64,000 nt of DNA from an uncultured Actinomyces sp. Lineage in GTDB: Bacteria > Actinomycetota > Actinomycetes > S36-B12. Below the pieces are notes generated by a model. That model was not told the DNA's origin, made no database searches, and was given only the letters and a program-made list of their open reading frames with translations. Numbering within the stretch: the stretch's first letter is position 1; each line of letters begins with the position of its first letter. Shown piece after piece: positions 47,245 through 62,101 of the stretch. The position numbers were made by a program, and so were the translations under genes. Location of the stretch: the NCBI GenBank assembly GCA_964537955.1, contig CAZICY010000005.1, positions 1,818-65,817 on the forward strand, in the 5' to 3' direction.

Positions 47245-48282
47245 GTGAGCGCCGAGATCCAGGCCATCCGCTGGCAGGACGATGCGATCGTCCTCATCGA
47301 CCAGACGCGCCTTCCTGCCGAGGAGCTGTACGTCTCCTGCCCCGATGTCGACTCCCTCGTGGATGCGGTGCAGCGGCTCGTCGTACGCGGCGCCCCCGCC
47401 CTCGGTGCTGTCGGTGGATACGGCGTAGCGGTGGCCATGCTCCAGGGGGAGCGCGAGGGCTGGCCGGCCGATCGGCTCGAGGCCGAGGTCGACCGCGTCC
47501 GCGATGCCCGTCCCACGGCCGTCAACCTCGCGTGGGGGGTCGATCGCGTGCGGCCTCTCATGGCCCGGGGAGTCGACGCGGTGCTCGCCGAGGCCCATCG
47601 CATCGTGGCTGAGGACACCGCCGCCAATCGCGCCCTATCGCGGCACGGTGCCGACTGGGTCCTCGCACACTGCGCACGCCGCCCCTTGCGGGTCGTGACG
47701 CACTGCAACACGGGAGCGCTCGCCACGACCGGCTGGGGCACGGCCTTCGGCATCATCCGCGAACTGGCGGAGCGGGGTGAGATCGAGCTCGTCTACGTCG
47801 ATGAGACCCGACCCCTGCTGCAGGGGGCGCGGCTGACGGCCTGGGAGTGCGACCAGCACGGCATCCCCTACGTCGTCCAGGCCGACGGCGCAGCGGCATC
47901 GACGATCCTGCGCGGCCTCGCCGACTTCGCCGTCATCGGCGCCGATCGCATCGCGCGCAACGGCGACACGGCCAACAAGATCGGATCCGTCGGCGTCGCG
48001 CTCGCCTGTGCGGCTGCGGGCATCCCCTTCGTCGTCGCGGCTCCCTCATCGACGGTGGACCTGGCCACCGCCACGGGCGAAGGCATCGAGATCGAGCTGC
48101 GTGCGGGCGATGAGGTCACCGCCTGGTCGGGGGTGAACGCGGCTCCCGCAGGAGCGCAGGGCTTCAATCCGGCATTCGACGTCACCCCCGCGGCGTACAT
48201 CTCCGCGGTGGTGACCGAGGTGGGTGTGGTCGAGCCGGGCCCGGGAGTCGCCGTGGACGCGATCGCGGGCGGGGCATCGTGA
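47245..48282 (+). CDS. mtnA: S-methyl-5-thioribose-1-phosphate isomerase
   Basis: IDQTRLP, VRGAPALG, RPTAVNL, THCNTGALAT, DETRPLLQGARLTAWE, GDTANKIG, NPAFDVTP. Confidence 0.95.
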   Translation: MSAEIQAIRWQDDAIVLIDQTRLPAEELYVSCPDVDSLVDAVQRLVVRGAPALGAVGGYGVAVAMLQGEREGWPADRLEAEVDRVRDARPTAVNLAWGVDRVRPLMARGVDAVLAEAHRIVAEDTAANRALSRHGADWVLAHCARRPLRVVTHCNTGALATTGWGTAFGIIRELAERGEIELVYVDETRPLLQGARLTAWECDQHGIPYVVQADGAAASTILRGLADFAVIGADRIARNGDTANKIGSVGVALACAAAGIPFVVAAPSSTVDLATATGEGIEIELRAGDEVTAWSGVNAAPAGAQGFNPAFDVTPAAYISAVVTEVGVVEPGPGVAVDAIAGGAS

Positions 48283-50252
48283 CCACGCCCCTGGAGCAGC
48301 TCGTCGCGCGATCCAACGAGATCGGCGCGGATCCCTCGCTCGTCGTCTACGGAGGCGGCAACACCTCTGCCAAGGGCATCGTCGTCGACCACCTCGGCCG
48401 CGAACAGCGCGTGATGTGGGTCAAGGGATCCGGTGCCGACATGCGGGGCTCGCACGCCTCCGACTACCCGGCCCTGCGGCTGGACGAGTTGCTCCCGCTG
48501 CTGGACCGCGACCAGATGTCCGACGAGGAGATGACCGACCTCGTCGCACGGGCACTCGTGGACCCCGGCGCGCGCAGACCCTCGATCGAGACGCTGCTCC
48601 ACGCCTTCCTGCCGTACACGCACATCGACCATGTCCACGCGGACGCCATCTGCGCCCTCACCAATCACGCGGAGGGCCCCCGGATCGTGGCGGAGGCCCT
48701 CGGCGAGGGCTTCGCCTACGTCGACTGGATGCGCCCGGGCTTCACGCTGAGCAAGGTGGTCGCCGACCTCGGCGCTCGCGACGGCGTCGTCCTTGCCCAC
48801 CACGGCCTCATCACCTGGGGCGAGTCGAGCGATGAGTGCTACCGGCGCACCGAGGCGGCGGTCGATCAGGCGCGCGCCTATCTCGAGGGTCTGCCGATCC
48901 GGGCAGCGGCTCCCACTGCCGTGCCGGACATGCCCGACGACGAGGTGGAGCGGCTCCTCCTGCGCCTGCGCGGAGCCATGGCGCGGACGGGAAGGCGCGT
49001 CCTGAGGGTCGACCGCCGTCTGCGCGCGGTCGCCGATCACCCCCTGCTCCCCGAGATCGTTGCGGGAGGTGTGAGCAGTGCTGACCACATGCTGCGCATC
49101 AAGCCGCGCTCCGCGGTGTCCACCTCGTCGTACACGGCCACCGAGGATGTCGGTGCCTATGCCGCCGACTACGCGGCGTACGTCGAGCGGAATGGCGATG
49201 CGATGCCCGAGGGCTTCGGGATGCACGACCCCATGCCGCGCGTCGTGCTCGTGCCCGGACTCGGTGCGGTGACGACGGGCGCCACGCTGCGCGACGCCGA
49301 GGTTGCCGCCGACATCGCGGTGCATACCCATGGCGTCGCGGCGACGGTGGCCGAGCGCATCGGGACGCCGCTCGGCCTGGACGAGCGGGAGACCTTCCGT
49401 TTCGACTACTGGCCGATGGAGCTCTACAAGCTGACGCTTCGACCGCCGTCCCCCGACCTCGCCGGATTCATCGCGATCGTCACGGGATCCGCGTCGGGCA
49501 TCGGTCGCGGCATCGCGCTCGAACTCGCGACCCGGGGCGCTTCCGTCGTGCTGGCCGACCTCGACGGTGACGGCCTTGAGGAAACCGCTGAGCGCATGCG
49601 CGAGGCGGGCGTCACGGCCCCCGTGCTCGTGGCCGGCGACCAGTCGGACGAGGCCGTGGTGGACGAGACGGTGCGCGCGGCCGTGCGCACCTTCGGCGGC
49701 CTCGATGGCGCCGTCATCAACGCGGGCATCGGCGTCACGGGCACGCTCGAGGAACTCACGCTCGGGCAGTGGGATGCCGCCATGCGCATCAACCTGGCCA
49801 GTGGCTTCCTCATCACGCGGGCCGCGATGCGAGCGATGCGCGCGCAGGGCTCAGGGGGCTCGCTCGTCTACGTCGCGAGCAAGAACGCCTTCGGCCCGGG
49901 AGCTGGCTTCGGTGCTTACTCGGTGTCGAAGGCAGGCATGGTGCAGCTCATGCGCATCGCTGCGCTGGAGGGCGGTGCCGCGGGCATCCGAGCCAACGCC
50001 ATCAACCCCGATGCGGTCTTCGACGACTCGCGGCTGTGGGACGGCGGGCTGCGCGAGGAGCGGGCGGCGGCCCATGGCATCGCGCCCGAGGAGCTCGAGG
50101 ACTTCTACGCCGCCCGCAACATCCTCAAGCGGCGCGTGACCACGGCTGATGTCGCGCGCACCGCGGCCTTCCTGCTCTCCGACGCATCGTCGAGGACGAC
50201 CGGCGCGGTCATCCCCGTCGACGGCGGTGTCGCGGGCGCGTTCCCTCGCTGA
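48279..50252 (+). CDS. Bifunctional class II aldolase / short-chain dehydrogenase (RhaEW/YuxG-like architecture)
   Basis: GGGNTSAK, PSIETLLH, DHVHAD, HHGLITWG; C-terminal TGSASGIG, NAG, YSVSK, NPDAVF; GTGA overlap with mtnA. Confidence 0.9.
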   Translation: MTTPLEQLVARSNEIGADPSLVVYGGGNTSAKGIVVDHLGREQRVMWVKGSGADMRGSHASDYPALRLDELLPLLDRDQMSDEEMTDLVARALVDPGARRPSIETLLHAFLPYTHIDHVHADAICALTNHAEGPRIVAEALGEGFAYVDWMRPGFTLSKVVADLGARDGVVLAHHGLITWGESSDECYRRTEAAVDQARAYLEGLPIRAAAPTAVPDMPDDEVERLLLRLRGAMARTGRRVLRVDRRLRAVADHPLLPEIVAGGVSSADHMLRIKPRSAVSTSSYTATEDVGAYAADYAAYVERNGDAMPEGFGMHDPMPRVVLVPGLGAVTTGATLRDAEVAADIAVHTHGVAATVAERIGTPLGLDERETFRFDYWPMELYKLTLRPPSPDLAGFIAIVTGSASGIGRGIALELATRGASVVLADLDGDGLEETAERMREAGVTAPVLVAGDQSDEAVVDETVRAAVRTFGGLDGAVINAGIGVTGTLEELTLGQWDAAMRINLASGFLITRAAMRAMRAQGSGGSLVYVASKNAFGPGAGFGAYSVSKAGMVQLMRIAALEGGAAGIRANAINPDAVFDDSRLWDGGLREERAAAHGIAPEELEDFYAARNILKRRVTTADVARTAAFLLSDASSRTTGAVIPVDGGVAGAFPR

Positions 50253-60803: not shown

Positions 60804-62101
60804 CCGGGGCGGAGCCCTTCACCGCGGTCGACCTGATCCGCATCAAGCGCGATGGCGGGGTGCTCGCCGACGCGCAGATCGACTGGCTCATCGACTCCTA
60901 CACCCGTGGACACGTGCAGGACGAGCAGATGTCAGCCATGGCCATGGCGATCTACTTCCAGGGCCTGAGCGAGCCTGAGCTCGTCAGGTGGACCCAGGCC
61001 ATGATCCGCTCCGGCGAGCGCATGGACTTCTCCTCGCTCGCGCGGCCCACGGTCGACAAGCACTCCACCGGCGGGGTGGGCGACAAGATCACCCTGCCTC
61101 TCGTGCCGATCGTCGCGGCATGCGGCGCTGCCGTGCCGCAGCTCTCCGGGCGTGGACTCGGGCACACGGGAGGCACGCTCGACAAGCTCGAGTCCATCCC
61201 CGGTTGGCGGGCCCACCTGTCGAATGCCGAGATGCTCGCGGTGCTTGCCGATGTGGGCGGAGTGATTTGCGCTGCAGGATCGGGTCTGGCTCCTGCGGAT
61301 CGCAAGCTCTACGCCCTGCGCGATGTCACGTCGACCGTCGACATCATCCCGCTCATCGCCTCCTCGATCATGAGCAAGAAGATCGCTGAGGGCACCTCAG
61401 CGCTCGTGCTCGACGTCAAGACGGGCTCCGGGGCATTCATGTCCGGCACCGCTCGCGCGGTCGAGCTGGCGCGCACCATGGTCGCGCTGGGCCGTGATGA
61501 GGACGTGCGCACCCGTGCCCTGGTCACGGCGATGGACGTGCCCCTCGGCGTGGCAGCGGGCAACGCGCTCGAGGTCGCCGAGTCGGTCGAGGTGCTGGCT
61601 GGCGGAGGCCCCGCGGACGTTGTCGAGCTCACGCTGCTCCTGGCCGGGCACATGCTCGAGCTCGTCGGCATCGACGCCGACCCGGCCGAAGCCATCGCCA
61701 GCGGGCGCGCGATGGACCACTGGCGCCGCATGATCCGGGCCCAGGGCGGAGATCCGGATGCCCCCCTGCCCCGGGCACCGATCGTCGAGACGCTCACCGC
61801 CGACCGGGACGGGGTCGTCACGCGCTGCGATGCCCTCGCGATCGGCCGGGCCGCGTGGCGGCTCGGTGCGGGCCGGGCAGCCAAGGACGACCCGGTGTCG
61901 GCGTCCGCCGGCATCGAGGTCCTCGCCAAGCCCGGCGACCAGGTCCGGGCCGGAGACCCGCTCCTGCGACTCCACGCGGAGGACGCCGCACGCCTCGACG
62001 CCGCGCTGCCCCTGCTCGCGGGACCCGAGCCCGCGGTGGTCGTCTCGCCGCCGGGGACCGGGTACTCACGCCTGCCCCTCGTGGTCGACGTCATCGACTA
62101 G
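60800..62101 (+). CDS. deoA: Thymidine/pyrimidine-nucleoside phosphorylase
   Basis: DKHSTGGVGDK, SGRGLGHTGGTLDKLESIPG, LIASSIMSKK, LGAGR. Confidence 0.96.
   Translation: MTGAEPFTAVDLIRIKRDGGVLADAQIDWLIDSYTRGHVQDEQMSAMAMAIYFQGLSEPELVRWTQAMIRSGERMDFSSLARPTVDKHSTGGVGDKITLPLVPIVAACGAAVPQLSGRGLGHTGGTLDKLESIPGWRAHLSNAEMLAVLADVGGVICAAGSGLAPADRKLYALRDVTSTVDIIPLIASSIMSKKIAEGTSALVLDVKTGSGAFMSGTARAVELARTMVALGRDEDVRTRALVTAMDVPLGVAAGNALEVAESVEVLAGGGPADVVELTLLLAGHMLELVGIDADPAEAIASGRAMDHWRRMIRAQGGDPDAPLPRAPIVETLTADRDGVVTRCDALAIGRAAWRLGAGRAAKDDPVSASAGIEVLAKPGDQVRAGDPLLRLHAEDAARLDAALPLLAGPEPAVVVSPPGTGYSRLPLVVDVID

Follow-up and report, generated by a model that had tools for sequence, protein, structure and literature searches.

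Background

The dihydroxyacetone phosphate (DHAP) shunt, in which MtnP, or MtnN together with MtnK, is followed by the isomerase MtnA/DrdI and the aldolase Ald2/DrdA, has been described in Rhodospirillum rubrum, Rhodopseudomonas palustris, Escherichia coli ATCC 25922 and Bacillus thuringiensis. Ald2 and DrdA are homologs of FucA, and drdA lies inside a methionine-salvage cluster of Corallococcus, with shared isomerases elsewhere (PMC6079011). RhaEW (YuxG) is an L-rhamnulose-1-phosphate aldolase joined to an L-lactaldehyde dehydrogenase, and its orthologs are described as always lying in rha loci (PMC3870299). In Pseudomonas aeruginosa a route through a 5'-methylthioadenosine (MTA) deaminase and a methylthioinosine (MTI) phosphorylase has been described (PMC6302742). 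Further literature drawn on is PMC10986504, PMC5893883, PMC8102628, PMC13267403, PMC5301498, PMC12817590, PMC13474568 and PMC12632272. Here we analyse a 64,000-nucleotide stretch, hereafter the window, of contig CAZICY010000005.1 (positions 1,818 to 65,817, forward strand; assembly GCA_964537955.1), from an uncultured actinobacterium deposited as Actinomyces sp. and placed by GTDB in S36-B12; the names of its homologs, too, point to Actinomycetota. Between positions 47245 and 62101 the window carries a cluster in which mtnA is followed by a gene for a class II aldolase joined to a short-chain dehydrogenase/reductase (SDR), below called the fusion. The cluster is conserved and is best read as a DHAP-shunt variant joined to optional methionine salvage. 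Its new parts would be the fusion enzyme and an entry by deaminase, MTI-type phosphorylase (MtiP) and ATP-binding cassette (ABC) importer; two fates in one locus are partly known.

Genomes (G), loci (L), genera (g) and contigs (C) are cited by our own numbers where they have to be told apart. G000 is the window's genome, 86% complete with 4.4% contamination.

A class II aldolase directly downstream of mtnA

In a family sample of 61 genomes mtnA was found in 21, and in all 21 a class II aldolase lies directly 3' of it. In 16 genomes this is the fusion; the other five have a stand-alone aldolase of about 212 aa. The stand-alone aldolase matches E. coli FucA best (E 1e-50, against 2e-34 for DrdA, 6btd) and scores below the FucA cut-offs; no fucose genes were seen beside it. 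In G030, G730, G738 and G725 it stands within an otherwise matching mtnC-mtnB-mtnD-mtiP-deaminase-cupin-SDR-bmp order. The five FucA-linked mtnA sequences nest among the fusion-linked ones, in a tree that needs three changes, of which the starred branches force only one. The fusion and the FucA-like aldolase are thus interchangeable in one slot, which suggests that they do the same job, and this is the strongest evidence for it. An earlier note on this DNA, made from the sequence alone, had proposed that the aldolase is the DHAP-shunt enzyme; with a FucA-like aldolase taking its slot in sister genera, the fusion very probably plays the predicted Ald2/DrdA role.

The same note had asked whether the cluster recurs, and it does. 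The order mtnA-fusion-mtnC-mtnB-mtnD is kept in 14 of 17 same-genus regions, the other three ending at contig ends, and the cluster was found in four genera, so it is not a one-off juxtaposition. Among 28 other genomes of the genus 21 have the fusion and 20 have mtnB, and the seven without the fusion are also without mtnB; related genomes are not independent samples, and such co-occurrence counts overstate independence.

Beyond these genera, the 80 best of 112 matches to a 60%-identity protein gave 77 related loci, mostly titled Planktophila, Nanopelagicaceae or freshwater Actinomycetota. Directly upstream of the fusion lies mtnA in 70 of the 74 loci with upstream DNA, in 56 of them with a 4-bp overlap, and in the Planktophila-type genus g57 the fusion occurs in 13 of 71 genomes, exactly the 13 that have mtnA. 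The 77 loci contain no mtnB, mtnC, mtnD or rha gene; they do contain a RuBisCO-like protein (38 loci), a split transketolase (14), MtnK above its cut-off (13) and mtiP with the deaminase (12). The RuBisCO-like protein has its best PDB match in 3qfw, which we take to be the R. palustris DeepYkr-type protein, and gave no tblastn match in G000. That other enzymes of methylthioribulose-1-phosphate (MTRu-1-P), namely MtnBCD in the window and the RuBisCO-like protein in 38 of 77 loci, are joined to the mtnA-fusion pair counts in favour of a shunt role. So does MtnK in 13 of the loci; the B. thuringiensis DrdK accepts 5-deoxyribose and 5-methylthioribose, not ribose.

Ten loci (L126, L131, L134, L135, L137, L138, L151, L278, L282 and L283) have a GntR-UTRA regulator with the mtnA-fusion pair and, as variable extras, a sugar ABC transporter, MtnK, a SnoaL-like protein, the split transketolase or the RuBisCO-like protein; they would form a second alternative branch at the mtnA-fusion hub. 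On the same fusion branch, L108, L112 and L154 have no mtnA upstream and have neighbours that by eye resemble RpiB, dihydroxyacetone kinase and a sugar kinase, or a D-lyxose-isomerase-like gene; these fusions have possibly been re-recruited to another sugar.

Relationship of the fusion to RhaEW

The fusion keeps the metal triad and catalytic acid of a class II aldolase. In its aldolase half GGGNTS (25-30), the catalytic E104 and the metal ligands H118, H120 and H175 are intact, as are TGxxxGxG, D427, S534, Y547 and K551 in the SDR half. An acidic residue at the position of D427 favours NAD. The structure model is confident (pLDDT 95.6); its matches in a fold search are SDRs and 3m4r, an aldolase domain that is itself uncharacterised, and nothing that speaks to substrate.

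Databases name the fusion a rhamnulose-1-phosphate aldolase/dehydrogenase, and with 536.9 bits to TIGR02632 it could be argued that this is an ordinary RhaEW that stands beside salvage genes by chance. Against this, the score misses the RhaEW cut-off of 567.75 bits, all 77 related loci are free of rha genes, and G031 and G707 have a separate rhamnose-type copy besides the fusion. In a FastTree phylogeny (thinned from 133 rows to 78, with 8 incomplete or stop-containing rows excluded) the mtnA-linked fusions group together on a single branch (SH-like support 100%), separate from the rhamnose-linked copies, to which the fusion is 37-44% identical. Matches in 301 genomes of the class are either at 59-60% (2 genomes) or at 37-41%, and the top matches in 351 genomes of the phylum are at 41-44%. 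The low-identity copies are rhamnose-linked, with rhaI or rhaB adjoining them in 24/27 and 11/12 of the loci examined and mtnA in 0/27 and 0/12. All six matches in a plasmid collection are below 40% identity, and rhamnose-type where annotated. We regard a chance placement of a rhamnose enzyme as extremely unlikely.

Position 23, just before the phosphate loop, is Asn in 13/13 rhamnose-linked rows and hydrophobic or small in the others, with Val in the mtnA-linked rows (Leu in 1/43); it is a guess that the non-Asn residue reflects a lost substrate hydroxyl. Both the fusion gene of L098 (10001-11956) and that of G668 are interrupted by an internal TAA stop; these are either broken copies or assembly errors. 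The wider trees do not establish that the fusion derives from RhaEW: there RhaEW is a single clade nested among numerous branches of non-rhamnose type, and the position of the root is not fixed.

Among more distant metagenome loci (the best 80 of 576 matches, 69 of the 80 rows included in a wider tree) mtnA lies directly upstream of the fusion in six, on two further branches; rha genes flank six, and most of the others stand alone.

Organization of the locus

The features of the region, with the gene to its left, are as follows.

45668..47242, plus strand: mutA-like gene, methylmalonyl-CoA mutase N-terminal domain; left landmark, 2 bp 5' of mtnA, also in an allele without mtn genes (see below)
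47245..48282, plus strand: mtnA, methylthioribose-1-phosphate isomerase (TIGR00512 387 bits, cut-off 279)
48279..50252, plus strand: class II aldolase-SDR fusion, 657 aa, RhaEW paralog (TIGR02632 536.9 bits, cut-off 567.75)
50256..50981, minus strand: mtnC, enolase-phosphatase (TIGR01691 223 bits, cut-off 128.1)
50997..51587, plus strand: mtnB, MTRu-1-P dehydratase (TIGR03328 159.5 bits, cut-off 137.05)
51622..52218, plus strand: mtnD, acireductone dioxygenase (PF03079 92.4 bits, cut-off 27; EHTHDEEEIR metal motif)
52215..52616, plus strand: cdd, cytidine deaminase (NF004064 154.5 bits, cut-off 74)
52613..53371, plus strand: mtiP, methylthioinosine-type phosphorylase (NF006599 241.6 bits, cut-off 223)
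53368..54663, plus strand: amidohydrolase, predicted deaminase of MTA, 5'-deoxyadenosine or S-adenosylhomocysteine (SAH) type (best PDB match 4f0r, E 1.6e-78; otherwise Pfam only)
54660..55130, plus strand: DUF985 (Cupin_5) protein, optional member (Pfam family only)
55127..55825, plus strand: second, stand-alone SDR, usually adjoining the cupin (Pfam family only)
56018..57097, plus strand: bmp, BMP/PnrA-like nucleoside-binding lipoprotein (PF02608; PDB TmpC 2fqw, E 8e-36)
57123..57157, plus strand: terminator-like hairpin between bmp and the first permease (6 sites in the region, shuffle mean 2.6)
57184..58299, plus strand: ABC permease (Pfam family only)
58296..59270, plus strand: ABC permease (Pfam family only)
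59274..60803, plus strand: ABC ATPase (Pfam family only)
60800..62101, plus strand: deoA, thymidine phosphorylase (NF004490 592 bits, cut-off 269)

Gene calls and family profile searches found all 15 genes at 47245-62101 present and intact, which agrees with the earlier gene list. The picture of a single integrated, operon-like cluster does not hold. The mtnC gene runs on the minus strand, its end 3 bp from the end of the fusion gene (tail-to-tail) and its start 15 bp from the start of mtnB (head-to-head); a 192-bp gap lies 5' of bmp and a terminator-like hairpin follows it; and MtnBCD is optional. The 4-bp overlaps said to join most of the genes occur at 8 of 14 junctions, against a baseline of 140/473 close same-strand neighbours (G000 contigs of at least 15 kb), so that they are enriched in the cluster and yet are weak evidence. 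The GC content of the region resembles that of the remainder of the window. There is no regulator gene within the cluster, a sigma-70 scan of the region returned no promoter-like sites, and one freshwater metatranscriptome, with 0.28 of the sampled words shared, gives no evidence on the region's transcription. No riboswitch or other RNA element was found at the locus: at the Rfam gathering threshold six sources gave only two tRNAs, both in L185.

At 7-8 nt before the probable start of mtnC stands a TAnnnT hexamer, which is the mtnB ribosome-binding site read on the opposite strand. By eye the hexamer is present in 11/11 same-genus loci (window 50976-50999; L021, L022, L027-L034), and in G031 the spacer is about 220 bp. 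The 15-bp spacer may serve both as ribosome-binding site for mtnB and as -10 box for a leaderless mtnC, in which case mtnB would be transcribed from within or through the antisense mtnC.

Between the fusion and mtnC some loci (L021 at 5937-7280, L027, L032, L038, L040 and G000 contig C162) carry an insert of about 1.35 kb in either orientation, encoding a protein of about 384 aa with a C-terminal DUF559/restriction-endonuclease-like domain, likely a mobile passenger at the convergent junction. Contigs C59, C162 and C158 of G000 hold second copies that match the window at about 84% nucleotide identity, and the copy on C59 is the mtn-less allele; these probably come from other species mixed into the bin. 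The mutA-like gene, for a B12-dependent mutase, abuts mtnA in the window and the deaminase in the mtn-less allele (L196, C59), and is not in the acI and g372 loci. Damage to adenosylcobalamin yields 5'-deoxyadenosine, and the link of the mutA-like gene to the cluster may be functional through such release.

The methionine-salvage module

MtnB scores above its cut-off in 11 of the 21 mtnA genomes of the family sample and in none of the 40 others. This suggests a locus built around the aldolase branch, with MtnBCD as an add-on. MtnB is linked to the cluster in g1, g2, g3 and g373 and lies on another contig in G031; the idea that mtnCBD is an insertion peculiar to the window's genus was rejected, since g2, g3 and g373 have it in the cluster as well. 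In five complete genomes carrying the fusion mtnD was not found. PF01507 (sulfate assimilation) was matched in 5/5 genomes, but the matches may be CysD and say little. No transaminase lies in the cluster, as previously noted, but three class I/II aminotransferase genes (PF00155) occur elsewhere in G000.

The gene content agrees with the proposal that one mtnA feeds both branches, and the two could act as a switch on one MTRu-1-P pool, with MtnBCD used when oxygen and a need for sulfur are present and the aldolase under low oxygen or a need for carbon. The separate transcription of mtnC would allow separate control, R. palustris runs two fates from MTRu-1-P, and DrdK/I/A of B. thuringiensis cleave the methylthio sugar too (PMC6079011). 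Such a switch is nevertheless unlikely: the cluster has neither a regulator nor an Rfam element at the gathering threshold, and the 10 of 21 mtnA genomes without MtnB would have nothing to switch.

Entry genes, transporter and accessory genes

The phosphorylase is above the NF006599 cut-off and misses the methylthioadenosine phosphorylase (MTAP) model (TIGR01694, 225.2 vs 274.85 bits). Its best PDB match is 3ozb, presumably the P. aeruginosa MTI phosphorylase, with which it shares NPAAG where MTAP structures have TDYD. The deaminase is closest to MTA/SAH deaminase structures (4f0r). These matches support the entry by deaminase and MTI-type phosphorylase proposed in the earlier note. Neither mtnK nor mtnN was found in G000 at its 86% completeness, where the only PF01048 gene found is mtiP.

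In the family sample mtiP tracks mtnA (15/21 genomes with mtnA vs 2/40 without), and in g57 it is found in 10 of 13 fusion carriers vs none of the 58 others. Among the g57 carriers without mtiP, G706 has mtnK and G700 and G705 show neither. In G317 mtiP, the same deaminase and ABC genes lie about 730 kb from the mtnA-fusion pair. G032, 99% complete, is an exception to the co-occurrence, with an mtiP ortholog and no mtnA found. In G741 (L281:5768-6715) a Rih-like ribonucleoside hydrolase, under its cut-off, lies 3' of mtnA-fusion-deaminase. Spermidine synthase gave weak matches in three of five genomes and none in the complete G317, which is at most suggestive of an MTA source external to the carriers.

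The cassette keeps the cupin and the second SDR both in the window's genus and as far off as acI, and in L024 (G002) the pair occurs twice in tandem. This conservation, together with the yeast DUF985 protein Cff1, which is needed for making a furanone, would fit a cassette whose substrate is some other 5'-modified compound, a sugar or a nucleoside such as SAH or a modified one taken from dissolved organic matter, with the cupin and SDR acting on its extra part. We consider this quite improbable, since the assigned enzymes are all members of MTA-pathway families and several complete cassettes are without the cupin and SDR (G031, G765) or without the cupin (G317).

cdd, deoA and an allele without mtn genes

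Three regions were fetched from fusion-less genomes (G014, G001, G005). The G014 allele reads mutA-deaminase-bmp-ABC-cdd-deoA, without mtn genes and with a BMP protein of a different type (34% identity); the G001 region is the end of such an allele, and the G005 region ends in window-type ABC genes. In loci with the fusion, cdd is not at its place in 6 of 15 same-genus loci reaching it, and deoA lies directly 3' of the ATPase in only two of the six loci long enough to tell. The presence of both genes in the mtn-less allele suggests that they are members of an older nucleoside locus, and contrary to the earlier assignment to the pathway they are likely passengers from it.

These genes also bear on the possibility that the locus is a general ribonucleoside route, in which ribose-1-phosphate, supplied by DeoA and purine phosphorylases, would pass through MtnA to DHAP and glycolaldehyde and on to glycolate, bypassing phosphopentomutase. 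In one acI lineage cdd and deoA directly follow the mtnA-fusion pair (13/77 loci), a PunA-type phosphorylase precedes the pair in two metagenome loci, g376 has PunA only, and haloarchaea have a ribulose-1-phosphate aldolase route (PMC9700705). On the other side, cdd and deoA also occur without mtn genes, MtnK and MtnBCD indicate 5-modified sugars, and in the Planktophila-type genus most genomes have the PunA-type phosphorylase, whereas mtiP is confined to mtnA carriers. The standard route also exists, deoC being found in 21/22 and a neighbouring phosphomutase in 20/22 same-genus genomes; by the same counts we rejected the idea that the fusion replaces the phosphopentomutase/DeoC route, both parts of which are absent from G000. 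The general route is therefore improbable.

Proposed pathway

The locus probably serves to import and break down MTA and 5'-deoxyadenosine, waste nucleosides of S-adenosylmethionine, by a predicted DHAP-shunt variant with ABC uptake, entry by deaminase and MtiP, and a built-in aldehyde dehydrogenase. MTA and 5'-deoxyadenosine would be taken up by the BMP-ABC transporter, a role for which the family is clear and the ligand is predicted, and then deaminated to the inosine form, where again the family is clear and the substrate predicted. The MTI-type phosphorylase would release hypoxanthine and the pentose-1-phosphate, and MtnA would form 5-methylthio- or 5-deoxyribulose-1-phosphate, both enzymes scoring above their family cut-offs. 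Judging by the in-place swap and the intact catalytic residues, the fusion would cleave this to DHAP and an aldehyde. In the least certain step, the NAD-type SDR half may oxidise acetaldehyde to acetate and methylthioacetaldehyde to methylthioacetate; reduction is possible. RhaEW oxidises its aldehyde with NAD+, with no reductase activity and no DHAP formed without NAD+ (PMC3870299), and by this analogy oxidation is predicted to pull the cleavage forward in the fusion. As an add-on, mtnC and mtnB-mtnD, which would be transcribed separately, may convert the methylthio sugar to the keto acid of methionine.

Most likely each branch would take its own substrate, the carbon of 5'-deoxyadenosine going to the aldolase and the sulfur of MTA to MtnBCD, and such sorting would fit at least as well as the partition of one metabolite. 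We favour it because MtnBCD recovers sulfur that would be lost if methylthioacetaldehyde were oxidised irreversibly, and because B. thuringiensis uses the shunt for 5'-deoxyadenosine beside a separate salvage pathway.

Several observations weigh against the proposed pathway. The sugar of RhaEW has the opposite C4 configuration, so the fusion needs to have an altered stereo-selectivity relative to RhaEW. Four of the 74 loci are without mtnA upstream, three of them showing other sugar genes, and the PunA-type phosphorylase 5' of the mtnA-fusion pair in two distant loci fits plain ribose-1-phosphate. The deaminase is under all NCBIfam family cut-offs and is also present in the mtn-less allele. 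No mtiP was found in G009, G700 and G705, and g376 (G741, G728) has mtnA-fusion-deaminase with neither mtiP nor mtnK found. The pathway also leaves the roles of the cupin and second SDR unexplained.

Non-rhamnose fusions sit behind mtnA in three branches and otherwise mostly alone. We therefore also speculate, with considerable doubt, that the fusion is a self-contained shunt enzyme which both cleaves the 5-deoxy or 5-methylthio sugar phosphate and deals with the aldehyde, that the non-rhamnose aldolase-SDRs, the large majority of the family, do the same job, and that abundant lake actinobacteria take up MTA and 5'-deoxyadenosine dissolved in the water and give off methylthioacetate or methylthioethanol, which would be an unrecognised organosulfur flux. 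Among the carriers are acI/Planktophila, described as the most abundant freshwater bacteria and as dependent on reduced sulfur, so that the proposed pathway could matter for the turnover of carbon and sulfur in lakes. If the pathway holds, a commonly mis-annotated 'rhamnose' enzyme would be reassigned, and the DHAP shunt would gain a third entry (deaminase and MTI phosphorylase, with ABC uptake) and a cloneable candidate for the aldehyde step, which a 2026 review calls unknown.

Comparison with known systems

The earlier note knew of no description of this combination in Actinobacteria. That a shunt aldolase can lie in a salvage cluster with a shared isomerase is known (PMC6079011), and this part is not new; among the papers searched, which include few from subscription journals, none was found that deals with an aldolase-SDR fusion in a shunt role or with the pathway in acI.

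The locus resembles the DHAP shunt in that mtnA is directly followed by a class II aldolase, entry is by a phosphorylase or kinase, transporter genes adjoin, and the isomerase may be common with, or lie inside, a methionine-salvage cluster. It differs in that the aldolase is a 657-aa RhaEW-like fusion and not a FucA homolog (FucA-like in the five sister loci), in the deaminase and MtiP entry, which falls outside the two characterised variants named in the 2026 review, and in that the aldehyde-handling enzyme, unassigned there, would here be fused to the aldolase. With RhaEW/YuxG the fusion shares the two-domain build, the three metal histidines, the phosphate loop and the SDR triad (PMC3870299), but it has mtnA in place of rha genes, forms a separate branch and carries Val23 instead of Asn.

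As in universal methionine salvage, mtnA, mtnB and mtnC are above their NCBIfam cut-offs and mtnD above that of Pfam; unlike it, the module is optional, mtnC is inverted, the cluster has no transaminase and in G031 the module is on another contig. The MTA deaminase and MTI phosphorylase route of P. aeruginosa is matched by an mtiP above cut-off with NPAAG; the deaminase has MTA/SAH deaminase structures as its closest matches and is under all NCBIfam cut-offs. In our locus, unlike that route, a BMP-type ABC importer and an aldolase branch are added. In the MTA-isoprenoid shunt a DeepYkr RuBisCO-like protein acts with a cupin, and relatives of our locus have a RuBisCO-like protein beside the mtnA-fusion pair; G000 differs in having no such protein found, and the cupin here is a DUF985 protein that occurs without it.

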